Part shown: positions 292-36,056 of the stretch, one piece after another
Numbering within the stretch: position 1 is the first letter of the stretch
Layout: every line of letters begins with the position of its first letter
Assembly (NCBI GenBank): GCA_030429345.1
Contig: JAUIFJ010000012.1
Span: forward strand, 19,898-83,897
Source of the DNA: a bacterium
Lineage (GTDB): Bacteria > CAIWAD01
DNA: 64,000 nt
Direction: 5' to 3'
Translations under genes and position numbers: made by a program
The notes under the pieces: model-generated
Database searches by the model: none
What the model saw: only the letters and a program-made list of their open reading frames with translations
What the model was told of the DNA's origin: nothing

Positions 292-879
292 CTATCGCGC
301 AGCAAGCCACTCGGCCAGGGCCTGCAGGGCGCGGCCGCGGTGGCTGATTTGGTTCTTGGCCGGAAGATCCATCTGGGCGAAGGTCCGTCCCGTGTGCTCC
401 GCCTCGAAGACCGGATCGTAGCCGAAGGTGCCGTTGCCGCGCGGCGCTTCCGTGATCCAGCCTTCGCAGGCTCCGCAGAGGCAGGTTTCGTGCCCCGGCC
501 CCACCACGGCGATCACGGTCTCGAAGCGTGCTCCGCGCTCCTCGCGGGGCCTTTTCCCCAGTTCCCGCAGCAGCTTGTTCACGTTGTCCGAGTAGCTGGC
601 GCCGGGACCGGCATAGCGCGCGCTGTAGACTCCGGGAGCGCCGTCCAGCGCTTCGACCAGCAGGCCGGTATCATCGGAGACGGCTTCGCGTCCCGTATGG
701 CGGAAGAGTGCCCGGGCCTTGAGCAGGGCATTCTCCTGCAGGGTGCTGCCTGTCTCCTCGGCCGGAACGAAGTCGGGCCAGGCGCTCTGGGCCTGCAGGC
801 GGTAGCCCAGCGGCTCCAGGGCGGCGCGGAACTCGAGCAGCTTGTCCGCGTTGCCGCTTGCCAGGCAGATGTCCTTCAT
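292..879 (-). CDS. rdgB: RdgB/HAM1 family non-canonical purine NTP pyrophosphatase (dITP/XTP pyrophosphatase)
   Basis: The ORF 292..1080 was trimmed to Met68 (MKDICLASGNADKLLEF...), which has a GGAGG RBS. The signature motifs of the Ham1 family are present (SGNADK, FGYDP, TFAQMD). The alignment was done by eye. Confidence 0.8.
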   Translation of the reverse strand: MKDICLASGNADKLLEFRAALEPLGYRLQAQSAWPDFVPAEETGSTLQENALLKARALFRHTGREAVSDDTGLLVEALDGAPGVYSARYAGPGASYSDNVNKLLRELGKRPREERGARFETVIAVVGPGHETCLCGACEGWITEAPRGNGTFGYDPVFEAEHTGRTFAQMDLPAKNQISHRGRALQALAEWLAAR

Positions 880-14419: not shown

Positions 14420-14450
14420 GGAAAACCCGTCGCGTTCGCGACGGGTTTTC
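14420..14450 (-). terminator. bidirectional rho-independent terminator at the end of the tRNA operon
   Basis: The hairpin AAAACCCGTCGCG-TT-CGCGACGGGTTTT has T-runs on both strands. Confidence 0.55.
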
Positions 14451-14453
14451 CAG

Positions 14454-21121: not shown

Positions 21122-22291
21122 ATGGCCGTCTTCGCCCTGATCGTGTCCGTATTCCAGCTGGCGCTGGGCAGCTATTTCTGTGCCCGCCTGCTGCCGCCGC
21201 TGCTGCCGGGCAAGCTTCCGCTGATCGCGGTCTGGCTGGTCTTCCAGCTGCTGCTCTTCCTGCCGCCGGCGGATCTGCTGCTGCGCGGCCAGGGCATTCA
21301 CCTGCCGCTGCTGTTCGAACGGGCCGGCTGGGCCGCCCTGGGCCTGGCCACCATGAGCCTGGGCTTCCTGCTGCCCCGGGACGGCCTGCTGCTGGCGGGC
21401 AAACTGGGCGCATGGATCACTCCCGCGGGCAGCAGCCTGCGCCAGCTGCTGGAGCGCGGGATCCAGCTGCTGGGAAGCGCGGGCGGCACGGCGGCCCTGC
21501 TGGGGTTGATCCTGCTCGCCTTTTTCACCGGAGTCCACACGGCCAGCCGCTTCGACCGCGTCAAGGAGGTCCGCGTTCCGGTGAGCGACCTGCACGAGGA
21601 CCTGCGCGGGCTGCGCATCGTGCAGTTCAGCGACCTGCACATCAATCCCTTCATACGACGCAGGCAGGTGCAGCAGGTGGTCGATCGAATCAACCAGCTG
21701 GAGCCGGACATCATACTCTTCACCGGCGACCTGGCCGACGGCACCGTGGCCGAAATGCGCCCGCACGCGGCTCCCCTGGCCGATCTGGATGCCCCGCTGG
21801 GCGTCTGGGCGGTGACGGGCAACCACGAATACTACCATGACCTGCGCGCCTGGGTCGATGAGTTTCCGCGCCTGGGCATGCCCCTGCTCTTCAACGAGCA
21901 TCGCCGCATCGCGGTCGGCGAGGCGGAACTGGTCATCGCCGGGGTGCCGGATGTGCGCAGCCACCGCGGAGCGCACGATCCCGCCGCGGCACTGGCCGGA
22001 AGCGAGGACGCCGACTATCGCATCCTGCTGGCGCACCAGCCGGCCAGTATTCTGCAGCTTCCCCGCGGCGCTTGCGACCTGGTCCTTTCCGGCCATACCC
22101 ACGGCGGCCAGTACTATCCCTTCCGCGGACTGACCGGCCGCTTCAATCCCTACCTGAAGGGCCTGCATCGCCATCAGGACAGCTGGATCCATGTCAGCAC
22201 GGGAACCGGATTCTGGGGACCGCCGCTGCGCCTGGGCGTCCCCCCGGAAATCACCCTGCTGCAGTTCGAGGAAAAGCCCGCCAGCCCCTGA
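21122..22291 (+). CDS. membrane-anchored metallophosphoesterase (calcineurin-like, YkuE-type)
   Basis: N-terminal TM helices are followed by the GDLHIN, GDLAD, GNHEY and GHTHGGQ motifs. Confidence 0.75.
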   Translation: MAVFALIVSVFQLALGSYFCARLLPPLLPGKLPLIAVWLVFQLLLFLPPADLLLRGQGIHLPLLFERAGWAALGLATMSLGFLLPRDGLLLAGKLGAWITPAGSSLRQLLERGIQLLGSAGGTAALLGLILLAFFTGVHTASRFDRVKEVRVPVSDLHEDLRGLRIVQFSDLHINPFIRRRQVQQVVDRINQLEPDIILFTGDLADGTVAEMRPHAAPLADLDAPLGVWAVTGNHEYYHDLRAWVDEFPRLGMPLLFNEHRRIAVGEAELVIAGVPDVRSHRGAHDPAAALAGSEDADYRILLAHQPASILQLPRGACDLVLSGHTHGGQYYPFRGLTGRFNPYLKGLHRHQDSWIHVSTGTGFWGPPLRLGVPPEITLLQFEEKPASP

Positions 22292-22359
22292 TTGCCCGTT
22301 GGGGCCGCCGTGTGAATTGTTATTCTTTCCTGGTTTACCAGAATTTCCAGGGAGGATTC

Positions 22360-25300
22360 ATGCACCCAGCGCGCTTGCTTTTATGGACGGCGGTTCTGGC
22401 CGGGGCGGCCCGGGCCGAACTGCAGATCGACATTGATCCGGACTCCTTCGTCAACTCGGCGCCGGTCACCATCCGGGCCGATATCGGCCTGACGCCCGGC
22501 ACCTGGTACGAGGCCAACGTGACCGGCCCCAGCGGCTTCCCGCCCATGTATCACGCCGTCTGGGCCAACGACGACGACATTGGCAGTCCCACGCCCGTGA
22601 ATGCCTTCGAGATCGACTACGGCTGCGACACGACCACCTTGACTCTCCAGCCCTTCTCGGTCTTCTATCTTCCCGGCCCCGCAGTGCCTCCCGGCGGTCC
22701 CACCGACTTCGGCACCATGGAATGCGTCGAGCAGAACGAGGCTCCCGGAGCCTTCGCCCTGCTGGCGCCCGCCGACGGATCCACCGGGGTCAACGAACCG
22801 GTGAGTCTCAGCTGGGAAGCCAGCGTCGACCCCGACGAGGACCCGGTGAGCTACAACCTCTACCTGGGAACCACCCCGGATGGTCTGTATGACGAGGCTC
22901 TCGAGACGGGCATCACGGCGACCAGCTACGACTGGAGCGGCGGCAGCCCCGGCGTGACCTACTACTGGGGCATCGGCGCGACGGACGGCGAGCTGGAAAC
23001 CCAGGTCGAGGGCTGGTGGGACTTCACCCTCTTCGATCCCGGCAGTCCTCCCGAACTCGCGCCCCTCGAAGACGATTCCGTCAACGAGGACACCGTATAC
23101 GAACTCTACCTCTGGGCCACCGACCCGGACCAGGACGAACTCAGTTTTTCGGTGGTGAGTGACAATCCCCAGGTGGCGGTCAGCTGGGAAGGTCCGGTGG
23201 AAGGGAACGACATCGACCTGAGCCTGACGCCCGCCGAGGACTATTACGGATCGGCCCTGATCACCGTGACCGTGGAAGATCCCCAGGGCAACTCGGACAG
23301 CGGCAGTTTCACCCTGGCCGTGAACAATGTGAATGATCCGCCGGATCCCTTCGACCTGCTGAGTCCGGACGACATGGCCGTGATTGCCGACGAGGATCTG
23401 GAGGTCACCTTCAGCTGGGAGGAAGGCAGCGATCCGGACCCCGACGAAGGTCCGGCACGCACGACCCAGTTCTGGTACTCGCTCTATGTCAGCGATTCCC
23501 AGGAAACCCTGTGGCAGAGTTCCGTCGCCAGCTGGATCGAGGAAACCAGCTACACCTGGACTCCGCAGGAAGCCGACAGCGGCCCCTGGTACTGGGGCGT
23601 GAAGACCTGGGACCCCTCCGAGGCCGGCACGCAGTCCGACGTGCGCAGCTTCACTCTGGATCCCCCGCCCTCTTTCGGTGAACTGCCCAGCCCCCAGAGC
23701 AGCGAGGACCAGTCATCCACCGAGTACATCTGGGCCAGCGATCCCCTGTTTGATGTGTTGACGCTGGACGCGACGACGACGAATCCCAATGTGAGCCTCC
23801 AGGTCGACACTCCTCTCGAGTGGAATGACATGGAGATCACGCTGACTCCGGACGAGGATTTCTACGGCGATGTGGAGATCCAGGTCACGGCGACCGATCC
23901 CGGGGGCAACGAGGCGGTCGACACCTTCACCTGGACGGTGCTCAATGTCAATGATCCGCCGGACCCCTTCGATCTGCTGGCCCCGGCCGACGAGGCCGTG
24001 CTGAGTGACGAGACGGTGATGCTCAGCTGGGAAGAAGGCAATGACCCGGACCCCACCGAGGAGGAACCCAGCGTCTTCTTTACCTATACCGTATACCTCT
24101 CGAACGATCCGGATGATCTGACAGGAAACGACGGCTATCCCTACGAGTCCGCGATCGTTGCCGAAGACATCGGCACGGCCTTCCATGAAGTCACTGTCGA
24201 GGGCGCGGGCCCGTGGTACTGGCGCATTCGGACCACCGACGACCACCAGACCTATACGATGGGCGCGCAGGTCTGGAGCTTCGGCATCGACTTCCCGCCC
24301 GTCATCGAGCCCATCGAGGATGTCGGCTCGCTGGAGGAAGAGGATGTATACGTCTATGTCCAGGCCTCCGACCCGCTTGACGACCTGCTGAGCTACACGG
24401 TGGAAAGCGACACTCCCCAGGTGCTGGTCGAATACCAGGGGCCCGTCGAGGGAGCCGAGCTTGAGATCCACCTGACGCCGGCCGTGGACTGGAGCGGCCA
24501 GGCCGGGATCACGGTCACCGCCGAGGATCCCGCCGGCGGCACGGACGTGGAGACCTTCACGTATACAGTGACCGATGTCAATGATCCGCCCTACGCCTTC
24601 GACCTGATCAGCCCCGCGGACGAAGCGGTCTTCAACCAGGTGCAGGTGCCGCTGAGCTGGGAAGCCGGCGACGATCCCGACGAGGGCAGCAGCTTCACCT
24701 ACACGGTGCACATCAGCCTGGACCCGGAAACGGTGATGGACAGCGTCTACGTGGAAGGCATCGCCTCTCCGGAACAGGTTTTCACGGCGACGGATTTCGG
24801 GCCCTGGTACTGGACCATCGAAACCTTCGACGACCAGGGAGAGAGCACCTTCGCCAACGAGGTGCGCAGCTTCCTGATCGAGCTGCCGCCTTCGCTGAAC
24901 GCGATCAACGACCTGCAGACCGACGAGGACACACCGCTCAACCACTTCGTCACCGCCAACGATCCCGAGGGCGGCGCCCTTCTCTTCGAGGTGGAGAGTG
25001 ACAATCCCAATGTGACGGCCGCTTTCGCCGATTCCCGTGACACGGAGTTGCTGGTGCTGACTCCAGCCGCGGACTGGTCCGGCATCGCGGAGATCACGGT
25101 TACCGTCACCGACGACCAGGAACTTACGGCGAGCGACAGCTTCCAGCTGACCGTCAACCCGGTCAACGACGCCCCGACCCTGGCCGACCAGGACCTGCTG
25201 ACCGACGAGGACACTCCCCTGGCCCTGTCCTACAACGGCGAGGATCCCGAAGACGATCCGCTGAGCTACAACATTGTCACACCGCCGGTCAACGGCACGG

Positions 25301-27363
25301 TCGACAACGACACCTACACGCCTTTCGCCGAGTTCTTCGGCTTCGACTCGCTGCAGGTGGTCGCCAACGACGGAAGCCTGGATTCCAATCCGGCCTGGTT
25401 CCGCATCACGGTCACCAGCATCAACGACGCCCCGCTGCTCAGTCTTCCGGAGAGCTTCGACTTCAACGAGGACGAAAGCCTGCTCGTCGACCTGGAAAGC
25501 TATGTCAGCGACGTGGACGACAACCAGTGGTCCTATGATGTCAGCTGGAGCAACTTCCAGTTCGACGCCGTCCTGGACGGCTCCGAGGTCACCTTCAGCG
25601 CCAACGCGGACTGGAACGGCAGCGTGGAGGTCGTGGTCAGCGTGGACGACGAACTGAACCGCCTGGTGGCGACGGACACGACCATGGTCAATGTGCTGGC
25701 GGTCAACGACCCGCCGGAAAGCGCGGATTCGGAATGGACAACTTCCGAGGACACCACCGCGGAAGTGCCCTTCCAGGCCGCCGACATCGACAGCGGGGAG
25801 CTGAGCATCGTCCTGGGCCAGGGGCCCTTCAACGGCAGCTACGACGAAGGAATGTATACGCCGGCCGCCGAGTTCAGCGGCATGGACTCCCTGTCCTTCA
25901 CCGCTTTCGACGGCGAGTTCTCCTCCGCCGAGTCCTGGGTCCGGATCACGGTGACGGCCGTCAACGACGCCCCGGGCATCGATCTGCCCGAAAGCATGAG
26001 CTTTGCCGAGGACAGCACGGTGGTGATGGACCTCTCTGCCTTCATCAGCGACGTGGACAACAGCGAGCTGGCCCTGAGTGTCACGGGACAAGGCAGCCTG
26101 GATGTGAGCTTCTCCGGCCTGGAAATGACCATCGTCCCCGAAGCCGACTGGTTCGGCGAGGAGGAGCTGACGATCACCGTCGACGACCAGGTGAACCGCC
26201 TGACGGCCAGTGACGTGATGACCGTGATCTACACCGCGGTCAACGACGCGCCGCAGGCCTTCGACGTGATGCAGGACATTCCCGAAGACACGCCGACGGC
26301 ATTGGCCTTCAACGGCCTGGACATCGAGGAGGATCCCCTGCAGTACGAGATCGGCCTGCAGCCCAGCCACGGCACGGTCGTCGACGGCGTCTACACTCCT
26401 GCCGCCGACTATTTCGGTCCGGACACGCTGAGCTACACGGCCAACGACGGCGCCCTCTCCTCCGCCGAGGCATTCGTCTACATCACGGTGCTGGCCGGAA
26501 ACGACTGCCCCTTCCTCGAGCTGCCGCCCGACGACCTGGAGGGCGTCGAGCAGCCCGAGGACTGGACCTATGTGCTGCCCGGCGAAACAATTGCCGGCTG
26601 GTACACGGATCCCGACGGCGATCCCCTGACGGCCGACTCGGTCTTTGTCGAGGTGTCGGCCTTCTTCAGCGGCGTGCTCACGGTGGACTTCATGGTTACG
26701 GATGGAAGCTGCGAGGTCAACGGGTCCGTCGACCTGGTGATCGATGCCCGCAACGACGCTCCGATCGTCGAACTCTGCGGCCCGCTGGATTGCGGCCCGA
26801 TCGAGGACCTGGAGGCCTTCGCCAACGCCTGGAGCGAGGTCGGCCTGAGCCTGCTCGACCATGACGGCGACGAGATGAATGTCAGCTGGTTCGTCGACGG
26901 CGAGCTTGTCTGCAGCCAGCAGCGCGACAGCCTGGAGACCTGCCTGCCGACCTGCCTGGACCTGGCTCCCTGGTGGACGGAGGATCCGCAGAACATCACC
27001 GTGCACTACGAGGTCAGCGACGACAGCGTGACGATCAACGAAGGCGGCGCGGACTGTTCCTGGTACCTGGACTTCCTCGACGTGGTCGAGGTCCTGCCCA
27101 CGGAATTCTACCTGGCGCAGAACTACCCCAATCCCTTCAACCCGAGCACGATGATCCGCTTCGGCCTGCCCCACCTGCAGCACGTGCGGGCCGCTGTCTA
27201 CAACCTGCAGGGCCGCCGCGTGGATGTCCTGTTGGACGAGACCCTGCCCGCCGGACACCACGAGTTCAGCTGGCAGGCCGGCGACCTGGCCTCCGGCGTC
27301 TACATCCTGGTAATGGACACCGGCCGCGAGGTCAAGCGCCAGAAGATGATGCTGCTGCGCTAG
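22360..27363 (+). CDS. giant secreted cadherin-like/Ig-like repeat adhesin with a T9SS C-terminal sorting domain (1667 aa)
   Basis: A GGAGG RBS and the signal peptide MHPARLLLWTAVLAGAARA are present. There are more than 12 repeats ending VNDPPD / VNDAP. The C-terminus reads NYPNPFNPSTMIRFGLP...GVYILVM...KMMLLR (Por_Secre_tail). Confidence 0.8.
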   Translation: MHPARLLLWTAVLAGAARAELQIDIDPDSFVNSAPVTIRADIGLTPGTWYEANVTGPSGFPPMYHAVWANDDDIGSPTPVNAFEIDYGCDTTTLTLQPFSVFYLPGPAVPPGGPTDFGTMECVEQNEAPGAFALLAPADGSTGVNEPVSLSWEASVDPDEDPVSYNLYLGTTPDGLYDEALETGITATSYDWSGGSPGVTYYWGIGATDGELETQVEGWWDFTLFDPGSPPELAPLEDDSVNEDTVYELYLWATDPDQDELSFSVVSDNPQVAVSWEGPVEGNDIDLSLTPAEDYYGSALITVTVEDPQGNSDSGSFTLAVNNVNDPPDPFDLLSPDDMAVIADEDLEVTFSWEEGSDPDPDEGPARTTQFWYSLYVSDSQETLWQSSVASWIEETSYTWTPQEADSGPWYWGVKTWDPSEAGTQSDVRSFTLDPPPSFGELPSPQSSEDQSSTEYIWASDPLFDVLTLDATTTNPNVSLQVDTPLEWNDMEITLTPDEDFYGDVEIQVTATDPGGNEAVDTFTWTVLNVNDPPDPFDLLAPADEAVLSDETVMLSWEEGNDPDPTEEEPSVFFTYTVYLSNDPDDLTGNDGYPYESAIVAEDIGTAFHEVTVEGAGPWYWRIRTTDDHQTYTMGAQVWSFGIDFPPVIEPIEDVGSLEEEDVYVYVQASDPLDDLLSYTVESDTPQVLVEYQGPVEGAELEIHLTPAVDWSGQAGITVTAEDPAGGTDVETFTYTVTDVNDPPYAFDLISPADEAVFNQVQVPLSWEAGDDPDEGSSFTYTVHISLDPETVMDSVYVEGIASPEQVFTATDFGPWYWTIETFDDQGESTFANEVRSFLIELPPSLNAINDLQTDEDTPLNHFVTANDPEGGALLFEVESDNPNVTAAFADSRDTELLVLTPAADWSGIAEITVTVTDDQELTASDSFQLTVNPVNDAPTLADQDLLTDEDTPLALSYNGEDPEDDPLSYNIVTPPVNGTVDNDTYTPFAEFFGFDSLQVVANDGSLDSNPAWFRITVTSINDAPLLSLPESFDFNEDESLLVDLESYVSDVDDNQWSYDVSWSNFQFDAVLDGSEVTFSANADWNGSVEVVVSVDDELNRLVATDTTMVNVLAVNDPPESADSEWTTSEDTTAEVPFQAADIDSGELSIVLGQGPFNGSYDEGMYTPAAEFSGMDSLSFTAFDGEFSSAESWVRITVTAVNDAPGIDLPESMSFAEDSTVVMDLSAFISDVDNSELALSVTGQGSLDVSFSGLEMTIVPEADWFGEEELTITVDDQVNRLTASDVMTVIYTAVNDAPQAFDVMQDIPEDTPTALAFNGLDIEEDPLQYEIGLQPSHGTVVDGVYTPAADYFGPDTLSYTANDGALSSAEAFVYITVLAGNDCPFLELPPDDLEGVEQPEDWTYVLPGETIAGWYTDPDGDPLTADSVFVEVSAFFSGVLTVDFMVTDGSCEVNGSVDLVIDARNDAPIVELCGPLDCGPIEDLEAFANAWSEVGLSLLDHDGDEMNVSWFVDGELVCSQQRDSLETCLPTCLDLAPWWTEDPQNITVHYEVSDDSVTINEGGADCSWYLDFLDVVEVLPTEFYLAQNYPNPFNPSTMIRFGLPHLQHVRAAVYNLQGRRVDVLLDETLPAGHHEFSWQAGDLASGVYILVMDTGREVKRQKMMLLR

Positions 27364-27391
27364 CCGCGACACGCATCCTGCGAAAACGAAA

Positions 27392-27424
27392 GCCCCCGGT
27401 CCTGTGGACCGGGGGCTTTTTATT
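27392..27424 (+). terminator. rho-independent terminator after the adhesin gene
   Basis: The hairpin GCCCCCGGTCC-tgtg-GGACCGGGGGC is followed by TTTTTATT. Confidence 0.7.
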
Positions 27425-27444
27425 CAAGAGTCCGCCGCATCCTG

Positions 27445-27535
27445 CGGCGGCTCTATGCAGCGACCCCTACGGGGTCGTTGCACCGACCGCGTAGCGGTCG
27501 CTGCATAAAACCGTCGCTGAATGCGACGGATCACA
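27445..27535 (+). repeat. intergenic structured repeat unit 1 (three hairpins)
   Basis: Each unit folds into three hairpins: GCAGCGACCCC-tac-GGGGTCGTTGC, GACCGC-gta-GCGGTC and CCGTCGC-tgaat-GCGACGG. Confidence 0.6.
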
Positions 27536-27544
27536 CAAACACAA

Positions 27545-27635
27545 CAGCGGCTCCATGCTGCGACCCCTACGGGGTCGTTGCACCGACCGCGTAGCGGTCG
27601 CTGCCTAGAACCGTCGCTGAATGCGACGGATCACA
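27545..27635 (+). repeat. intergenic structured repeat unit 2 (about 94% identical to unit 1, period 100 nt)
   Basis: This is a direct tandem copy of unit 1 and folds into the same three hairpins. Confidence 0.6.
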
Positions 27636-27649
27636 CCACTCCACTCCCC

Positions 27650-28780
27650 CTACAGCGCGAAGCTGATGCCCGTGCTGAAGGCGTTGTACTTGGCGAAGCT
27701 GTAGTCGAAGTTCCAGTTGACCAGCGCCAGGCGAATGTTGGCGCCAATGGAGAAGCGCGTCGTGTTCTCGCTTTCCAGTTCCAAAGAGATCGACTCGGTG
27801 TAGATGCCGTCCGGTGCGGCGGCGCTGACCGGCACGGGAACCTGCAGGGTGTAGCCTACATCCATGCTGGCATCCTCGATCAGGAAGCCGGCGTAGGGAG
27901 TCAGGTTCAGGAAGCGCCAGCCGAACTGCTTGCTTGCCGTCAGACCATAGGCCGTGGCCTTGCTCTTGAAGAGCGTGCCGACTTCCATGGTCTGGGTGAA
28001 GAAGCTCAGGGCCAGGTCGACCGGCAGCTCCTTCTTCATCCACACCGCCGGATTGTGCTGAATGCCGAAGCCCGTATACGAGTATTCTCCCAGATCCTCG
28101 TTCAGCTCGACGGCGGGCAGCATGCGCAGCGTGAACTGCGTGCCGAACACGGTGCCCAGGGAGATCTGCGGCACGGTCAGCGGCAGCACGTTGACTTCCG
28201 CCAGGTCGCCGAAGCCGCCGAAAGGAAGCTTCACATCCATTTCGTCTACATAGAAAGTGGTGTCCAAGCCAGCCACATTCACGTCAAATCCTTGACCACC
28301 AAAATTGACTGTTATGGAATCTTCCATCGCGCCGACTACCGTAGCACCACTAATTCCGACTGAGTGTTCCTGTGCTGTAATAGCATCGATGAGTTGATCT
28401 TCGATGAGGGGCCATAGAGCGGGATATGGGCTTTCACTTTCCAACGGCTCAACCAAGAATGCTGCCTCAGATTCACTGAATCGGAAGTCACCGGTCACGG
28501 AAAAGTGATCCGCGTCCGTCGGAAAGAAGGACCCCATGATGACCAAGCCGGCCTCGAAATTGAAGCCGACTTTCTTCGCCTGGGGCGCGCGACGGAACCA
28601 GCCCGAGTTGAGGTTGGCGCCGAAGGCGCTCGAGATCGGCGCCACATAGGCTGCCGCGGCGTCGCCGGTCAGGGTTTCCAGGGTTTCTTCCAGGGTCCGC
28701 TCCTCGGCGGAAAGCCCCACCGCCATGCCCAGCAGCAGGCCCAGGCACGCAATGCCGCGCCCTGCCATCTTCTGTACCAT
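27650..28780 (-). CDS. putative outer-membrane beta-barrel protein
   Basis: A signal peptide MVQKMAGRGIACLGLLLGMAVGLSA is present. Alternating hydrophobic/aromatic beta-strand patterns run to the C-terminus (...FDYSFAKYNAFSTGISFAL). Confidence 0.45.
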   Translation of the reverse strand: MVQKMAGRGIACLGLLLGMAVGLSAEERTLEETLETLTGDAAAAYVAPISSAFGANLNSGWFRRAPQAKKVGFNFEAGLVIMGSFFPTDADHFSVTGDFRFSESEAAFLVEPLESESPYPALWPLIEDQLIDAITAQEHSVGISGATVVGAMEDSITVNFGGQGFDVNVAGLDTTFYVDEMDVKLPFGGFGDLAEVNVLPLTVPQISLGTVFGTQFTLRMLPAVELNEDLGEYSYTGFGIQHNPAVWMKKELPVDLALSFFTQTMEVGTLFKSKATAYGLTASKQFGWRFLNLTPYAGFLIEDASMDVGYTLQVPVPVSAAAPDGIYTESISLELESENTTRFSIGANIRLALVNWNFDYSFAKYNAFSTGISFAL

Positions 28781-28986
28781 TTCTTGCCTCTTCCGTTGGT
28801 GAGTGCCGCTTCCCGCGGCAGAACCTGACACTTATCGACCGCCTGGCCGTCCATGTCCAGAAGGTAGGGCATCGGGATCATGCTCAAATACGAGGATCTT
28901 CGTATGGCAGGCCCGTCGTGCAAGCTCCTACTTGGGGCGCATCATGGAAACCAGCACGGTTTCCTCGCAACAGAATGGAATGCCCC

Positions 28987-30219
28987 ATGAAAACTGCACT
29001 CGGACTGCTTTGGCTGGGCTTCTGCCTGCCTGCCGCCCATGCCGACTGGGAGGCCGTGCACGATGGTCTGGAGAATCTGGAACTGCGCGCCCTGGTTGCG
29101 TATGCGGACACGGTGATGGCGGGAACGGCCGACGGCATCTTCCGCAGCCAGGACGGCAGCAGCTGGACGGACATCAGCGGCAACCTGGCCATGCGCGATG
29201 TCCAGGGCTTGTGGGGCGGCGGCGCACCCCGCGTGCTTTGGGTCGCCACTTTCGATGGCGTTTACCAGACCGTCAACCACGACCACTACGACAACAACAC
29301 CGGCAGCGGCCTGGGTACGGCGGATGCCCACTACTACTGGTTCGGCGACACATCGGAGGAAGCCACCGAATGCGCCGTCGGAACCAATGGCGCAGGTCTC
29401 TATGTTGGCGCGGACTGGGGCGGCCCCTGGACGGCGCGCAACAACGGCCTGACCGGCGATGCCCTGGTGGTCAACAACATGAGCGGCTACTCGGACGACG
29501 ACTTCGACGGAGCTTACCTCTGCACCGAAGGCGGCCTCTTTCTCTCGACGGACAACCTGGCCAGCTGGAGCTCCCTGAACCGCAACCTGAGCGGCGACCA
29601 GCTGCATGTCAATGCCGTGCTCGGTTTCGGCACGGTCGAGATGATCGCCACGGACGCAGGCTTTCTCTACAGCCTGGAAGGTGCGGACTGGGCGCCCCTC
29701 GTCGAGGATGACGGGGTCTTCAATGTCTTCGCCCTGTACCCCATGCAGGGAATCGGCCTGGCCTTCGGCACGAACGGCTATGTGACCTTCGACAACTTCA
29801 GCTACATCCCCGTCGACATGGGCGGCGTCAGCGGCGGCCTGGTGACCTGCGCCACGGTTACTTCCACGCATATCTATGTCGGTACGGAAACCGGCGGCGT
29901 CTTCCGCACGCCGATCGACGCGGTCTCGGTCGGCGAACAGGCTCCCCGCCCCGAAGGCTTCCGCCTGGCGCAGAACACGCCCAATCCCTTCAACCCTGTG
30001 ACACGGATTCCCTACGAGCTGGCCCATCCCGCCCGTATACGGCTCCAGGTCCACGACCTGCTCGGCCGCCGGGTGGCCCTCCTCGACCAGGGCCTGCGCG
30101 AAGGCGGCCGGCACCAGCTGAATTTCGACGGCAGCGGCCTGGCCAGCGGGATCTACTTCTATTCCCTGGAAGTGGATCACGAGATCCGCGCCACGCGGCG
30201 CATGCTGCTCAGCAAATAG
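28987..30219 (+). CDS. secreted beta-propeller (BNR/sialidase-like repeat) protein with a T9SS C-terminal domain
   Basis: A signal peptide MKTALGLLWLGFCLPAAHA is present. Repeated S-x-D-x-G-x-x-W motifs are visible. The C-terminus reads NTPNPFNPVTRIPYEL...GIYFYSL...RMLLSK. Confidence 0.6.
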   Translation: MKTALGLLWLGFCLPAAHADWEAVHDGLENLELRALVAYADTVMAGTADGIFRSQDGSSWTDISGNLAMRDVQGLWGGGAPRVLWVATFDGVYQTVNHDHYDNNTGSGLGTADAHYYWFGDTSEEATECAVGTNGAGLYVGADWGGPWTARNNGLTGDALVVNNMSGYSDDDFDGAYLCTEGGLFLSTDNLASWSSLNRNLSGDQLHVNAVLGFGTVEMIATDAGFLYSLEGADWAPLVEDDGVFNVFALYPMQGIGLAFGTNGYVTFDNFSYIPVDMGGVSGGLVTCATVTSTHIYVGTETGGVFRTPIDAVSVGEQAPRPEGFRLAQNTPNPFNPVTRIPYELAHPARIRLQVHDLLGRRVALLDQGLREGGRHQLNFDGSGLASGIYFYSLEVDHEIRATRRMLLSK

Positions 30220-30394
30220 TCCCGCCCTCTCATGGGCGGCAACCGGCGGCGGGAATGGTCTACATTCCTTGCGGGGAAACAGTCGGTTGCCGCCCTCTTC
30301 CAGGCCACTACAGTCTGTTTTTCGAAAACGAGAACGGGGCCCCGCAAGGGGCCCCGTTCGTGTTGGAAGAGGTGGTCCAGCACCTGTGGCAGGG

Positions 30395-31981
30395 TTACTT
30401 GACCAGTGTCAGGGACTGAATGCTGCGCTGGCGATTGCTCTCCAGCAGGGCGATGTAGCGGCCGCTGGCCAGTCCGGAAGCGTTCCAGACCAGGCTGTGG
30501 CTGCCGGCCTGCAGGCCGCCTTCATACAACACGCTGACCAGCTGGCCCTGCAGGTTGTATACGGCCAGGCGTGCATCGCCGGACTGCGCCAGCTCGAACC
30601 TGAGGCTGGTGGTCGGGTTGAAGGGGTTGGGATAGGCCGGGTTGATGTGGACGCCGTCCGGACGGCTCAGCTCCTGGCCGACCGACGTCAGCTGGCCCAG
30701 CTCGATCGCGACATCGCCGGCTCCCGGCGCGTCCACGGTGGCCCAGGCGCCCAGGGTGCTGTTGGCCAGCGTTCCCGTGGCCCAGACCGTGTAGGTGGTA
30801 CCGGCCATCAGCTCGACCGGCTCGAAGGCAAGCACCACGTCCTGGGTGCCCGCCAGGCGGACTTCCAGGTCGTAGGCCATCGGCATCACCGGCGTATACA
30901 TGGCGGATTCGTTGAATTCGATGTCGCCGAAGAGCACGGTGCCGTCGGCCAGAGTGATGTCGACTGCCGGGGCATCGGCACCGGTGTGCACGAAACGGAC
31001 CCAGGCTTCGTCAGGGTCGGTGAGGCGCGTGTCGCTCAGGACCACGGGGCCGAAGCTCTCGTCGGCCAGCAGGCCGGTGGCGGCCACGGTGGTGGCGCTG
31101 CCCGCGGCGAAGTCGAGGGTGGCGTCGATCACGGGATCGGTGGTCGTGCCGGCGACGAAGACCTGCACGTTGCGGCTGCCGGCCATGATGTCCAGGTAGG
31201 GACTGAAAGCGGGATAGCTCACGTCGCTGAGCACTTCCGCGCCGTCCAGCCAGACATCGACGGCGGGAGCGTCCTCGCTCAGGTGCGCCACGCGCAGGCT
31301 GGTGCCCAGCACGCTCAACTCCTGCGCCTCATCCCCCGGGCCCGGGGCGTCTACGGTCGCCCAGGCGCCCAGTGTGCCGTCGGCAAGCGTCCCTTTGGCC
31401 AGAACGGAATAAGTCGTGCCCTGGTCCAGGGAAACCGGCTCGAAGGAAAGTACGACGTCCTCTGTCCCCGCAATGCGGACCTGCAGGCTGTAGCTGCCGG
31501 GGTGCACGGGGGTATAGTCGATAAACTCGTTGAACTCGACATCCTCGAAAAGCACCGTGCCATCCGCAAGGGTGATGTCTACGGCGGGGGCGTCCGCCGC
31601 CGTGTGGACAAAGCGGACCCAGGCCATTGAAGGATCGGTGTCGCGCGTATCACTCAGGACCAGAGGACCGAAGCTGTCGTCGGACAGCAGCCCGGTAGCG
31701 GCCACAGTCGTTGCGCTGCCTTCAGCGAAATCGAGGGTGGCGTCGATCACAGGATCCATCGAAGTACCCGTGGCGAAAACCTGCACCTGGTGCATGCCGG
31801 CATCGATATCCTGATAGCCGCTGAAAGCGCCGTAGGGCACATTGTTCAGGACAACGGAACCATCCAGCCACACATCCACGTTCGGGGCGTCCGGGCTTAC
31901 ATGAGCAACGCGCAGATCCGCACCCTGGGCCGCCAGAGGCAATGCCAGACCTGCTACAAGAAATGCTTTCCAGTTCATCAT
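30395..31981 (-). CDS. tandem DUF4397-domain secreted protein with a T9SS C-terminal domain
   Basis: Two nearly identical halves are present (LRVAHxSxDAPxVDVWLDG...ATLDFAxGSATTVAATGLL). The C-terminus reads AYPNPFNPTTSLRFEL...GRYIALL. Confidence 0.7.
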   Translation of the reverse strand: MMNWKAFLVAGLALPLAAQGADLRVAHVSPDAPNVDVWLDGSVVLNNVPYGAFSGYQDIDAGMHQVQVFATGTSMDPVIDATLDFAEGSATTVAATGLLSDDSFGPLVLSDTRDTDPSMAWVRFVHTAADAPAVDITLADGTVLFEDVEFNEFIDYTPVHPGSYSLQVRIAGTEDVVLSFEPVSLDQGTTYSVLAKGTLADGTLGAWATVDAPGPGDEAQELSVLGTSLRVAHLSEDAPAVDVWLDGAEVLSDVSYPAFSPYLDIMAGSRNVQVFVAGTTTDPVIDATLDFAAGSATTVAATGLLADESFGPVVLSDTRLTDPDEAWVRFVHTGADAPAVDITLADGTVLFGDIEFNESAMYTPVMPMAYDLEVRLAGTQDVVLAFEPVELMAGTTYTVWATGTLANSTLGAWATVDAPGAGDVAIELGQLTSVGQELSRPDGVHINPAYPNPFNPTTSLRFELAQSGDARLAVYNLQGQLVSVLYEGGLQAGSHSLVWNASGLASGRYIALLESNRQRSIQSLTLVK

Positions 31982-32336
31982 CTACTCCTGCGAATTGGGT
32001 TTGACCTTCGATCTGCGAACAGAATATGAACATGAAATCTATCTGTCAAGGTTTCGTCTAAATTAATTCTGGACAGACTGTCATCATTTCCGATAATTCT
32101 TCCCATGAAGGAAGATTTTAATAACTAGTTCGCGCGCTTCTAAACTTATAGTATGGGATCCGCGCTGTGCATCAGGGCAATCAATCGATTTGTTCATCTT
32201 TTGTCGCATTTATGGAGGAGTAGGCCGGAGGGCTGCATTGGCCTGTTTGCCATGGTGGGCAGCTATGTCGCAATGCTGCAGACAGCGACAGTCTTGACCG
32301 ATACAAGGGGCATCAACTCAATTCGGAGGATGGATC

Positions 32337-34268
32337 ATGTCTGCTGCATTCCGGGGAATCGCCGGACGAGTGCGCTTCTTTGCCCTTGCCATGTCCGCGC
32401 TGATCCTGCTGCTGATCGTCGGTGGCGGCGCGACCTGGAAGAACCAGAACAGCACCACGTCCATGCTGCAGGAGCACCTGAACCGCTTACTGGGGGCGGA
32501 CCTGGAAACCCTCGAGCTGGTTTCCGACCTGCAGCTTCATGTATCACGCCTGGCGCAGGACTTCCTGGTCCTGGGCGCGACAGCGGATGCCGAGGTGGAA
32601 AGGTCCCTGCAGGGGCAGCAGGCGGCCTTCGAAGACAAGCTGGGCCAGCTGGGTGTGTACGCGAAGGCCCACGGACAGAAGGATCTGCTGACGCTCCTGG
32701 ATCAGGTGGAGCACAAGTTCGCCTCCTTCCTGGCGCTTGGAGCACAAGGCGGCTCACAGGTTGAGGACCAGGCTTCCGTCATCGATGCCGCACATATCCG
32801 CGCGATCCAGCAGAACACGCAGGGGATCCAGTCGACACTCCAGCAGATGGAGCAGGTGGCGCACACGGAACTCCAGCGGGGCGGCGCGGAGCTGGGAGAT
32901 GTCTTCCAGTCCATGTTGCAGGGCAGGCTGATCCTGGTCGGGATCATCCTGCTGAGCGGCGTGGGCGCCTTCGGGGCGATCTGGCTCTGCACGATCCTGC
33001 TCTCGCGCTTCCTGGTCACACCGGTTACAGCCCTGACCGAAACGGTGCTGGCCTTCAGCCGCCAGGAGTACGACCACGAAATCCCCTGTCTCACGCGCAA
33101 GGACGAGATCGGCGAGATCGCCCGCGAACTGGGCGTACTCGGCAAGCGCTCGGAAGAAGCGCAGCGCCTGCAGCAGCAGACCCTGGAGGAGCAGGAACGG
33201 CGCCTGGAGCAGGAACGGCTGCAGCGCAAGGCCCTGGAGGAAGTGGAGAACCAGAAGAACCTGGTGCAGGAGGAACAGCGCAAGCGCGAGGAAGAGGAAG
33301 CCGCCGCCCTTCGCTTCAAGCAGGAAGTGCATCACATTCTGGAATGCCTGGAAAGCATCCGCTCGGGGAACCTGCAGACCGTGCTCGACCTGAGTGTGGA
33401 AGGCGACCTCGGGAAGATTGCCGAGGGCATCGATCAGTTGCAGCAGACGCTGAAGGACAGCATGGGCCTGATCTCCGGCAACTCTCTGAGCCTGTCCGGA
33501 GCCAGCAGCCAGATGAAAGTCGTCTGCGAAAGCCTCGACACCCAGGCCGGGCAGAATACCCATCGCGCGGAAGAGGTCAACCAGCGCTATGGCGAAGTCA
33601 GCAGCCGCATTCGCAGCGTCTCCGGATCCACGGCCGAGCTGGCGAACAGCATTCGGGAAATCGCGCGCAATGCCGCGAACGGACAGTCTGTCGCACAGGA
33701 CGCCGTCCGCTCGACACAGACAGCCAACCAGACCATCAGCAGCCTGCACAACTCCAGCGCCGAAATCGAGTCGGTGATCAAGACGATCACGGCGATCGCC
33801 GAGCAGACGAACCTGCTGGCATTGAACGCGACCATCGAGGCGGCGCGGGCCGGAGAGGCGGGCAAGGGATTTGCCGTCGTGGCCAACGAGGTGAAGGAAC
33901 TGGCCAAGGAGACGGCGATTGCCACCGAGGACATCGGACGGAAGATCATCGCCATCCAGACCGACACGGCGCAGGCGGTCAAGGCCATCGGCTCGACGAC
34001 GGAGACCATCGAGGGCATCCACGCCATCCAGACCAGCATCGCCGCCGCGGTCGAGGAGCAGAGCGCGACCACCGCCGAGATCAACAACCAGATCGAGGAC
34101 GTCAACCGGCTCGGAGATGAGATCCTGGATCACACGAAGAACGTGGTCGAGGCCGCGCGCCAGACCCAGGGCCAGGTGCACACCATCGTCGATGCCACCG
34201 ATTCCCTGGAAGGGATCAGCATCGAGTTCGGCACGCTTGTCTCACGGTTCCGCTTCGAGAACCGCTAG
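32337..34268 (+). CDS. methyl-accepting chemotaxis protein
   Basis: A GGAGGA RBS and an N-terminal TM helix with a sensor region are present. A HAMP/coiled-coil segment is followed by the MCP signalling domain ([31 protein letters not shown]). Confidence 0.85.
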
Positions 34269-34274
34269 CCTGGG

Positions 34275-36056
34275 CTACTTGAGAAGCAGAAGGCTGCGCG
34301 TCCGGCGTTCTCCGCCCGCGCGCAGCTCGATCCAGTAGCGTCCGCTGGATAGCCCGTCCAGCTCAATCGGCTGCTCATGGAATCCGGCGGGCAGCTGCCC
34401 CAGGTCGAGCTGCAGGCGCATCGCCCCGCGCAGGTCGAAGAGTCGGAGCTGCACCGGCAGCGCGCGCACCAGCGTGAAAGGCAGCTGCACGCGCCCGTTG
34501 AAGGGATTGGGATAGGGCGCGGCAAGACTCAGCAGCGCCGGCCGGGTCGGCCTGTCGTCCCCGCCTTCGACCCCCGTCTCGACGGGGGTGAAAACGACCT
34601 CGAACACGCCGCCGCTTCCCGCGGGCAGGTCCACCAAAAGGGTCTCGGCGTCAAAGGCGCTCCAGGGCTCGCCCTCGTGCATCACGGACAGGATCTCCAG
34701 GCTGCCCGCCTCGTGCGCGATCGGCGAGAGGCGCACGACCCGCGGCTCGTCGGAGTGCTCGAAGCGATAGAAAAGGCGCGCCTCTTCCCCGTGCAGCAGC
34801 AGGCTGCTGTAGAGATAGGTGTAGTAGCCCAGCTCCATGGAATGGTAGCCCGCCTTGTAGCCGTTGCCCTTCGTGGTTCCCCAGGTCTCCTCGCCACGCC
34901 GTGTGCGGTCCGCGTAGACCTCGCCGTAGACGTGATCCACGAAGTGCTCCATGAAGAAGGCGCTGCTGCCCTGGGCCATCTCCAGGTAGTCCGGCGAAGG
35001 ATCCAGCCCCTGCAGCATCAGCCCGGCCATGACTCCCTGCTCCATCTGCCACCAGGCCTTGGTGGTGTCCGGATTTCCCCACATCAGCATCTCGCCGCTC
35101 AGGCGGTTGTAGTCCTTGTAGGGACCGCCGTAGTCATGGTCATAGCCGTTGTCCCACACCTCATCGAAGAGGGTCCGCGCCGCGTCCAGGTACTCCGGAT
35201 TGCCGGTCAGCCGGTAGACGCGGCCCAGGCACCAGGAGGTCTTGAGCACGTGTCCCATGATGGTCATGGTCTCGCCGTTGTCCACGTTCCAGTCCGCGTC
35301 GAAGACCTCGGCGAAACCGATCGCCTGTCCGGGCATGGAGCCGACCAGGTGGTCGATCATCTGCCCGCAGAGCTCCTCCAGGCGCTCGAGGCTCCCGGGA
35401 TCCAGCCCCATCAGCTGGCTGAGCAGGACATGGGTCGTGACCGCGTCCACTGTGGCGTTGAAGCTCTTGCCGACGGGGTTCAGGCCCGTGCGTGAGACAT
35501 TGTCGTAGTAGCCTTCAAGGCCGGGACGATCATCCCAGAAATGCTCTTCGAGCCAGGCGGATCCTTCTTCCACGGCCTCCAGCCAGAGTTCGCCCGCCGT
35601 GGCCTCGATGGCGGCGGCATAGCCCAGCAGGGCATAGTGCTGGTCGAAGGCGTTCTTCCCGGCCCAGGGATTGACGGGTTCTCCCTGGCTGTCGAGCTGG
35701 GAAAACCAGCCACCGTATTCCTCGTCCCAGCCGTGTTCGGCGAGCCAGGCCAGGCCCTGCTCCGCGCGGTCCAGCCAGGCCTCGTTCCCCGTGAGCATGA
35801 AGGCCCGCACATAGCCGTAGGCGTTGCGGGCCTGGGTCAGCATGTTCTTGGCGCTGCCCGTCGGCTGCCCCTGGCGGTTGACGTCCGTATACCAGCCGCC
35901 TCCCTGGGCGTCCCAGGAATCCTCCCAGAACACGGCGCAGCTGTCTACATAGCCGATGTTGAGTTCCGGATTCGTGATGTAGGGACTGCTGAACTGGGCC
36001 CGCGCAGGCAGGACGCCGCTTGCGGCCAGCAACAGGAAAAGAAGGATGCGATGCAT
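34275..36056 (-). CDS. N-acylglucosamine 2-epimerase (AGE) superfamily (alpha/alpha)6-barrel protein with a T9SS C-terminal domain
   Basis: A signal peptide is present and the aromatic-rich six-hairpin repeats are typical of the AGE/cellobiose-epimerase fold. The C-terminus reads PYPNPFNGRVQLPFTL...GRYWIEL...LLLLK. Confidence 0.65.
   Translation of the reverse strand: MHRILLFLLLAASGVLPARAQFSSPYITNPELNIGYVDSCAVFWEDSWDAQGGGWYTDVNRQGQPTGSAKNMLTQARNAYGYVRAFMLTGNEAWLDRAEQGLAWLAEHGWDEEYGGWFSQLDSQGEPVNPWAGKNAFDQHYALLGYAAAIEATAGELWLEAVEEGSAWLEEHFWDDRPGLEGYYDNVSRTGLNPVGKSFNATVDAVTTHVLLSQLMGLDPGSLERLEELCGQMIDHLVGSMPGQAIGFAEVFDADWNVDNGETMTIMGHVLKTSWCLGRVYRLTGNPEYLDAARTLFDEVWDNGYDHDYGGPYKDYNRLSGEMLMWGNPDTTKAWWQMEQGVMAGLMLQGLDPSPDYLEMAQGSSAFFMEHFVDHVYGEVYADRTRRGEETWGTTKGNGYKAGYHSMELGYYTYLYSSLLLHGEEARLFYRFEHSDEPRVVRLSPIAHEAGSLEILSVMHEGEPWSAFDAETLLVDLPAGSGGVFEVVFTPVETGVEGGDDRPTRPALLSLAAPYPNPFNGRVQLPFTLVRALPVQLRLFDLRGAMRLQLDLGQLPAGFHEQPIELDGLSSGRYWIELRAGGERRTRSLLLLK

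Follow-up and report, generated by a model that had tools for sequence, protein, structure and literature searches.

A tandem pair of nested palindromes between convergent genes of an apparently uncultured bacterium: a candidate REPIN/BIME-like miniature element

The DNA stretch analysed here (the window, 64 kb) carries two palindromic repeats in tandem between a pair of convergent genes. The gene on the plus strand is an open reading frame (ORF; 22072–27363) for a large surface protein of the adhesin type, in which Pfam recognizes Big_9 and cadherin-like repeats and a C-terminal Por_Secre_tail, a T9SS sorting domain. From this domain content, the product is predicted to be a T9SS-sorted surface protein. 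Its start codon is uncertain, as the 5′ end of the ORF overlaps a metallophosphatase ORF. The gene on the minus strand (27650–28780) is assigned by Pfam to the DUF6588 family and encodes a putative outer-membrane protein (OMP) with a signal-peptide-like N-terminus. Its start was set at 28780 on the evidence of an exact 376-amino acid protein on record in a public collection, and its stop codon, TAG, lies at 27652–27650 (CTA on the plus strand). The two stop codons are separated by 286 nt of non-coding DNA. The neighbourhood is of a housekeeping nature, the window proteins identified through Pfam including aconitase, arginine biosynthesis enzymes, MazG, SpoU, HU, an MCP and FGE-sulfatase-domain proteins. 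No transposase, Y1_Tnp or RAYT was recognized by Pfam among the ~44 window proteins, and the window holds no IS.

An intrinsic terminator shared by both genes is located 25 nt past the adhesin stop codon, ahead of the repeats. It occupies 27389–27419, with a tail to 27424, and consists of AAAGCCCCCGGTCC-TGT-GGACCGGGGGCTTT followed by TTATT. The stem is a perfect 14-bp inverted repeat, preceded by an A-tract and followed by a T-tract; in minus-strand orientation, CGTTTTCGC comes after the stem, making the structure bidirectional. From left to right, the spacer is thus composed of the terminator, a 100-nt unit, a 16-nt A/C-rich spacer, an 84-nt unit, TCACAC, 13 nt and the CTA of the DUF6588 stop codon. 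Since the repeats reside between this stop codon and the shared terminator, they are predicted to be transcribed in the 3′-UTR of the DUF6588 gene and not in that of the adhesin gene. The adhesin transcript should end at 27389–27419, before the repeats are reached. By the same layout, the DUF6588 transcript would have to pass through the two copies, read as their reverse complement, before arriving at the terminator, unless it is stopped within the first copy. No sigma-70-like promoter was detected in 27300–27750, and there is no tRNA or tmRNA near the repeat locus.

The direct repeats extend over 27447–27536 and 27547–27636. They are 90 nt in length, identical at 86 of 90 positions (96%) and have a period of 100, as determined with a repeat finder and TRF (TRF score 352). 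A sequence-only reading of the locus had described tandem repeats of ~90 nt with a ~100-nt period. This description is borne out; its coordinates were essentially right, displaced by about 2 nt, and its figure of 94% identity was slightly too low. Copy 1, in its complete form, is an imperfect palindrome of 100 nt (27431–27530) with 50-nt arms, 82% identical to its own reverse complement. Its ends are formed by two short palindromes of 19 nt each, H0 and H3. H0 (27432–27450) has the form CCGCCGCA-TCC-TGCGGCGG and is the left-end counterpart of H3 (27511–27529), which reads CCGTCGC-TGAAT-GCGACGG and is an inverted copy of H0. The sequence-only reading had taken H0 for a separate short hairpin standing before the repeats, when it is really the left end of copy 1.

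The space between the terminal palindromes is itself a palindrome of 54 nt (27454–27507), with a folding energy of −25.3/−25.7 kcal/mol as DNA and a z-score of ~−8. It is made up of H1 (27456–27482) and its inverted copy H2 (27479–27505), each of 27 nt with one G-T or C-C mismatch, which overlap in a central TGCA. For H2, a stem of 6 bp (GACCGC/GCGGTC) had been described; this pairing is present, but the arms are really 12 nt long with one mismatch. H1 and H2 can either fold locally as two hairpins or pair into a single long one. The tetranucleotides CTAC and GTAG occupy the two 3-nt-loop regions of the 54-nt palindrome. The CTAC is found at 27467–27470 and the GTAG at 27491–27494 (again at 27591–27594 in the second copy), in the loops of H1 and H2 and 16 nt from the foot of H0 or H3. 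Neither tetranucleotide stands directly 5′ of a hairpin foot, the canonical position. Terminal inverted repeats are present, with TCCGCCGCATCCTGCGGCGG matching the reverse complement of the right end, TCCGTCGCATTCAGCGACGG, at 16 of 20 positions. There is no target-site duplication, as the flanks of copy 1 (...CAAGAG and TCACAC...) have no direct repeat in common.

Copy 2 (27547–27636) comprises an 84-nt unit (27547–27630) followed by TCACAC, and contains H1′ (27556–27582), H2′ (27579–27605) and H3′ (27611–27629), the foot of H3′ being 20 nt from the DUF6588 stop codon. Its left arm is missing the outermost 16 nt: the copy starts inside H0 and keeps only GCGGC of the H0 3′ arm. Four substitutions separate it from copy 1, at 27554, 27559, 27605 and 27608. 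Of these, one disrupts a pair in the outer stem of H1, and another, at the outermost H2 stem position, abolishes an outer pair of the long H1:H2 hairpin. A core of 45 nt is identical in both copies (27460–27504 and 27560–27604). Over both copies, there are four near-identical palindromes of 27 bp, of the GCGACC-N5-GGTCGC type, which lie 23 nt apart inside a copy and recur with the 100-nt period. The inter-copy spacer (27531–27546) begins with the same TCACAC (27531–27536) that follows copy 2. The 10 nt beyond it are non-homologous between the copies, AAACACAACA (27537–27546) after copy 1 having no counterpart in the CACTCCACTC that follows copy 2. The 90-nt homology, the non-homologous 10 nt, the missing outer left arm of copy 2 and the four substitutions together indicate that the pair is not one clean 100-nt tandem duplication.

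The named hairpins and the adhesin-side terminator of the earlier description are all present, which makes that description accurate but incomplete. Its three hairpins per repeat are one possible fold and not the most stable one, as the minimum-energy fold of copy 1 pairs H1 with H2. As DNA of either strand, or as plus-strand RNA, copy 1 folds at minimum energy into H0, the 54-nt H1:H2 hairpin and H3. Minus-strand RNA of copy 1 instead forms a single hairpin over all 100 nt, at −81.4 kcal/mol versus −70.4 kcal/mol for the plus strand. In copy 2, there is stronger competition from local hairpins because of its substitutions. Every fold is far more stable than its shuffled controls, with z-scores between −9.6 and −13.6 for copy 1 and the whole region; copy 2 taken by itself gave −5.2 to −6.5.

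Alignment of the four half-elements allowed the arms to be compared. Of 52 positions, nine are different between the two arms of copy 1, and four of these nine differences form two compensatory pairs: a C-G to T-A change in H0/H3 and a C-G to G-C change next to the loop in H1/H2. Both pairs preserve the local hairpins at the expense of mismatches in the long-range pairing. When this was simulated in a simple way, chance gave two or more compensatory pairs in 1.4% of trials (P ~0.014). This lends modest support to the local hairpins as real structures, in DNA or in RNA, which would then be kept by selection or by hairpin-templated correction. Five of the arm mismatches are transitions, four of which turn into G-U pairs on the minus strand, a 4:1 bias that is not significant.

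The ancestral state of the spacer can be read from related loci. The nearest named relatives, judged by OMP homologues, are MAGs labelled Ca. Cloacimonetes or Ca. Delongbacteria; the closest homologue is 70% identical and lies on a 1.8-kb contig. The convergent OMP/adhesin pair is also found in the two nearest relatives with long contigs. One is GCA_020431785.1 (L002), labelled Ca. Cloacimonetes, with an OMP 66% identical and a spacer of 87 nt; the other is a JGI metagenome contig (L004), with an OMP 61% identical and a spacer of 78 nt. Both spacers hold a single A-tract/hairpin/T-tract terminator as their only feature. Across all the relatives’ loci inspected (L002–L006), there were ordinary terminators only, and no REP-like clusters. 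The short one-terminator spacers indicate that the ancestral layout was stop codon, bidirectional terminator, stop codon. By this comparison, the ~200 nt present here are a lineage-specific insertion or expansion on the DUF6588 side.

Further copies were sought within the same genome. In the window, the 42-nt core with up to three mismatches matched only these two places, where shuffled sequences lead one to expect 0. Searches with blastn-short and with regular expressions for each hairpin type returned no other copy in the 64 kb. The four half-elements also served to build a covariance model, which was applied with all filters switched off. The half-elements themselves score 65–81 bits (65.6 and 80.3 bits for the arms of copy 2), and the next best match reaches 11.8 bits (E ~0.2). 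This model gave no further copy in the window, in the relatives’ loci or in ~11 kb of additional sequence from the same organism, which was reached through the Logan contigs L028 and L029 and brings the total to ~75 kb. The sequence-only reading’s claim that no copy exists elsewhere in the window is upheld by all of these searches. The probability of meeting at most one locus in ~75 kb is ~0.02 at an E. coli-like density of one per 13 kb, and a high-copy REP family is unlikely. If a family exists, it is of low copy number and confined to a lineage that the public collections otherwise leave unsampled.

Public collections gave the same picture. A 23-base pattern across H1–H2 had 0 matches in 185,579 species genomes (GTDB) and in JGI metagenome contigs. 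A looser single-hairpin pattern with 20 specified bases returned seven isolated matches in the genomes and six in the JGI contigs, from unrelated taxa, and these were set aside as chance. Their free positions are non-complementary, their flanks are unrelated and several look coding-like; ~1–5 matches are expected for the genome scan. In IMG/VR, one scan gave eight matches (at least three being the same sequence) that are not hairpins and are likewise attributed to chance, and another scan gave 0. A blastn search with settings for distant similarity, against plasmids and phages, returned no match. A six-frame translation of the repeats was compared with 5.8 billion protein clusters, the aim being to catch spurious ORFs called over other copies, and nothing was found at E ≤ 10. 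One open frame searched with HMMER against 1.84 billion representatives retrieved only an unrelated tandem-repeat ORF (P0121). The sequence-only reading had counted a lack of further copies among the signs of a mere local duplication; over the sequence covered here, no further copy came to light.

It had also been proposed that the repeats might be a small structured RNA, a proposal that finds no support in the Rfam scan or in the promoter search described above. In Rfam, no family reached its gathering threshold over the repeats. The best match was MIR820, a model of a plant miRNA precursor, at 49.5 bits against a threshold of 196, and the remaining matches, recovered at permissive E-values, were far below threshold and belonged to generic long-hairpin miRNA models. 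Only four tRNAs pass the gathering thresholds in the window and the two flanking contigs.

Several known systems offer points of comparison. REPINs consist of two inverted REPs with a hairpin-forming spacer, measure ~89 bp and occur most often in structured tandem arrays (PMC3337134). The unit described here resembles the REPINs of Pseudomonas fluorescens SBW25 (Bertels & Rainey) in having two inverted short imperfect palindromes at the ends of a ~90–100-nt unit and a spacer that forms a hairpin. The whole unit can form a near-perfect long hairpin, of a size within the ~70–110 nt range of REPINs, and the units are in tandem and extragenic. It differs in copy number, since REPINs are present in tens to hundreds of copies per genome and are tied to a single-copy RAYT, whereas here there is one locus and no RAYT was seen among the ~44 window proteins. 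In addition, no described REP has sequence in common with the terminal palindromes or the spacer, and the host is apparently an uncultured bacterium and not a proteobacterium.

BIMEs are formed by a REP and an inverted REP with a linker and are located in extragenic transcribed regions (PMC3479197). REP/BIME elements are known to stabilize the mRNA upstream of them and, near a stop codon, to influence its translation (PMC3479197; PMC12306157). The locus shares with the E. coli REP/BIME elements their imperfect palindromes of ~20–40 nt with stem mismatches, the reiterated arrangement of REP, linker and inverted REP, and an extragenic position after stop codons and between convergent genes, with transcription into a 3′-UTR, which is predicted in the present case. 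In the canonical REP, GTAG is placed directly 5′ of the hairpin foot (PMC3479197); here, as noted, GTAG and CTAC are in the H2 and H1 loops, 16 nt from the H3 and H0 foot. Furthermore, REPs make up ~1% of the E. coli genome, in contrast to the single locus in ~75 kb here.

A second class, the MITEs (the Correia elements of Neisseria, ERIC and RUP), is also comparable in that these are non-coding units of ~100 nt with terminal inverted repeats, inserted intergenically next to genes. Unlike these elements, the unit has no target-site duplication (flanks AAGAG and TCACAC) and no known parent IS, and is a palindrome of palindromes where MITEs have unique sequence between their terminal inverted repeats. 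Transcripts of the Correia elements are said, following De Gregorio et al., to fold into long hairpins that are cut by RNase III. The locus can further be compared with tandem or bidirectional intrinsic terminators, which are also GC-rich hairpins 3′ of genes. On the minus strand, H3 of copy 1 (27529–27511) is followed by TTTTAT and conforms to a simple terminator rule. However, the other six hairpins of the repeat pair are without U-tracts, the genuine terminators of this genome have an A-tract, a long stem and a T-tract, and the relatives need only one terminator for this gene pair.

The reading that best accommodates these observations is that of a lineage-specific miniature palindromic repeat, REPIN/BIME-like (or MITE-like), present as one complete and one 5′-truncated copy in tandem. 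This reading is tentative, and a probability of roughly 0.45 is assigned to it. The unit is likened to REPINs and BIMEs as a candidate and not counted as a proven member of a multi-copy family; it is a new sequence of an already known kind. The suggestion of a REP/BIME-like repeat, already made by the sequence-only reading, is thus supported by the architecture, the tandem array and the extragenic convergent site, but not by dispersed copies, of which there are none in the ~75 kb or the public collections searched. The anatomy agrees with it, in that the terminal palindromes H0 and H3 are inverted relative to each other, the spacer between them is itself a palindrome, and the whole unit can be folded as one long hairpin or as several local ones. 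Insertion of an element, followed by its reiteration, agrees better than a single slippage with two facts: orthologous loci do not have the element, and the junction between its copies is non-homologous. Set against the reading are the lack of a second locus, of a target-site duplication and of a transposase in the window, and the displacement of GTAG/CTAC from the canonical position. The right flank TCACAC common to both copies also fits a segmental duplication.

For a miniature element of this kind, the following course of events may be envisaged. The unit would have arrived, or been copied, as single-stranded hairpin DNA by a transposase acting in trans, either of RAYT/Y1-type or belonging to an IS, and encoded elsewhere in the genome. 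It would then have been turned into a tandem pair, as is typical of REPINs and BIMEs. Within the cell, the repeats would be transcribed only as their reverse complement, in the 3′-UTR of the DUF6588 mRNA, where copy 1 is predicted to form a double-stranded hairpin with ~50-nt arms (−81 kcal/mol). H3 of copy 1 together with UUUUAU may add a weak upstream terminator. It is likely that so stable a hairpin blocks 3′-to-5′ exonucleases and/or attracts cleavage by RNase III, an effect that is compatible with a mobile or a local origin alike. The stabilizing 3′ element suggested earlier is plausible for the mRNA of DUF6588, and not for that of the adhesin, whose transcript should stop earlier.

The main rival is a one-off product of local events, which is a serious possibility, although it ranks below an element that is, or formerly was, mobile. 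According to this explanation, a hairpin beside the terminator was expanded by template-switching during replication (inverted duplication) into a palindrome of palindromes and then duplicated in tandem by slippage, with no family, transposase or selected function involved. The locus is unique in all searches, and the unit can be written as eight alternating GCGAC(C/G) and (G/C)GTCGC heptamers, as would result from reiterated inverted copying. Two further local resemblances point the same way: an exact 11-mer, CGCATCCTGCG, lies on both sides of the terminator (27372–27382 and 27436–27446), hinting at another local duplication, and the 7-bp H3 stem CCGTCGC/GCGACGG is also the core of a tRNA-operon terminator at 14420–14451. 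The right flank TCACAC carried by both copies also counts in its favour. Together, these features would fit repeated copying by template-switching in and around a terminator. Against this, the copies are 4% diverged, the 10 nt between them have no homologue after copy 2, and copy 2 begins inside H0. These features are unexplained by a single slippage, so that several further events are needed. The compensatory changes in the arms would also imply selection or repeated hairpin-templated correction.

A further idea is that an uncultured lineage with ties to Cloacimonetes/Delongbacteria possesses a REPIN-like system not described before, of which this is the founding, or the only visible, locus, or that the locus is a “proto-REPIN” at birth. 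The latter term denotes a nested palindrome that could have been made locally beside a terminator and is just starting to multiply. Such an outcome is judged unlikely. If true, it would bear on how REP-type repeats originate.

Less probable again is a selected cis-acting RNA element of the DUF6588 mRNA that is not mobile and serves as a 3′ stabilizer, an RNase III site or the source of a small RNA derived from the 3′-UTR. The position of the repeats, wholly inside the predicted DUF6588 3′-UTR from 20 nt past the stop codon, is in keeping with such a role, as are the greater stability of the copy 1 fold on the minus strand, the mismatches that turn into G-U pairs on that strand, and the terminator-like H3 with its UUUUAU. 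On the other hand, the element is missing from every orthologous locus examined and so is not a conserved part of DUF6588 regulation, and no Rfam family matches it. The G-U bias carries no statistical weight, and the perfect strand symmetry of most stems is expected from a DNA palindrome with no selection on RNA.

BIMEs bind IHF and gyrase, and an array of palindromic DNA sites for a dimeric regulator, or for a nucleoid or topology protein, was considered on account of the four regularly spaced, near-identical palindromes. This is very improbable, as there is no promoter or promoter-like site to regulate between the convergent gene ends, the motif occurs nowhere else in the 64 kb and no regulator gene is adjacent.

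Least credible of all is an assembly artefact, namely a false tandem or palindromic join introduced by the metagenome assembler, palindromic repeated sequence in a MAG contig being a known risk. An independent Logan assembly of run ERR3428548 (contig L001, 5,657 nt) contains the identical DUF6588 gene and the next 75 nt, its end falling at position 27575 of the window. Read from the right, copy 2 has its last unique 31-mer at 27575–27605. With a common core of 45 nt and a graph of k = 31, the presence of both variants in the reads would force the contig to end at precisely 27575. From these coordinates, we infer that both copy variants do exist in the reads, which argues against an artefact, as does the fact that the copies differ at four positions and in their flanks, which an artefactual duplication would not give. 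In practice, the element is of value as a marker, since short-read assemblies break at this locus. Other structures were discarded on simple grounds: an integron attC site (inspection by eye shows no GTTRRRY core, and there is neither a cassette nor an integrase), a CRISPR (with which repeats of 90 nt and a spacer of 10 nt are at odds), a retron (no RT gene nearby) and a small ORF (all ORFs spanning the region are long and spurious and overlap real genes).

Whichever explanation holds, no current view is changed, and the finding is a modest and probably ordinary one. Should the locus be a one-off, it provides a small example of the growth of palindromes next to terminators. Most of the available evidence on REP/RAYT systems is from Proteobacteria. 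If the repeats belong to a real family, they would constitute REPIN-like elements of a new sequence class, from an uncultured lineage that has received little study. They would also mark an OMP gene whose mRNA ends in a double-stranded hairpin with ~50-nt arms, and with it a testable case of control through the 3′-UTR.

The closest homologue of the DUF6588 outer membrane protein (OMP), encoded at 27650-28780 on the minus strand beside the tandem repeat element, is found in GCA_020063645.1 with 70% identity. The contig of this relative stops 48 nt past the DUF6588 stop codon (L006 1730-1777), so the assembly of the closest relative, too, breaks in this spacer. The contig ends in a small hairpin, CCCGC-TTTC-GCGGG. 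The spacer sequence that is visible in the relative (1730-1777) is unrelated to the repeat of the window.

Within the spacer between the adhesin and DUF6588 genes, an exact 11-mer, CGCATCCTGCG, is located on either side of the terminator hairpin, at 27372-27382 and 27436-27446. The occurrence at 27372-27382 comes after the stop codon of the adhesin, and that at 27436-27446 forms the loop region of H0, the short palindrome that opens the first repeat copy. The 11-mer is a small palindrome in its own right, and the pair may be the trace of a local duplication within the spacer.

The longest ORF of the adhesin (22072-27363) begins at a TTG and shares approximately 220 nt with a calcineurin-like phosphoesterase ORF (21122-22291) at the 3′ end of the latter; the real start of the adhesin probably resides downstream of this TTG. 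Weak Por_Secre_tail domains are present in three proteins besides the adhesin, encoded at 28918-30219 (plus strand), 30395-31981 (minus strand, with DUF4397) and 34275-36056 (minus strand, GlcNAc 2-epimerase-like). A cluster of T9SS cargo genes (28918-36056) surrounds the repeat locus, and four proteins with FGE-sulfatase domains are encoded in other parts of the window.

At the left edge, positions 1-281 belong to an intergenic stretch of 322 nt, of which approximately 40 nt lie past the edge. The full stretch is contained in a Logan contig of the same organism (L029 4934-5255), downstream of the Ham1/RdgB gene (window 292-879, minus strand). Its ends are 18-nt inverted repeats, CTCACGCGGAGACGCAGA and TCTGCGTCTCTGCGTGAG, and within it are a 19-nt inverted repeat whose arms lie 117 nt apart and two tandem copies of a 25-nt direct repeat, CGATTCAGTCGCC. 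The stretch has no match in Rfam and its sequence is unrelated to the element at 27431-27636; it may represent a MITE-like or structured-RNA region.

A terminator hairpin with a perfect 14-bp stem, GGAAAACCCGTCGC-GTTC-GCGACGGGTTTTCC (14420-14451), immediately follows the tRNA Pro-Arg-His-Glu operon (14811-14453, minus strand). The core of this stem, CCGTCGC/GCGACGG, exactly matches the stem of H3, the palindrome that closes the first repeat copy. This identity may be due to chance, or may hint that the terminal hairpins of the repeat originated from terminators.
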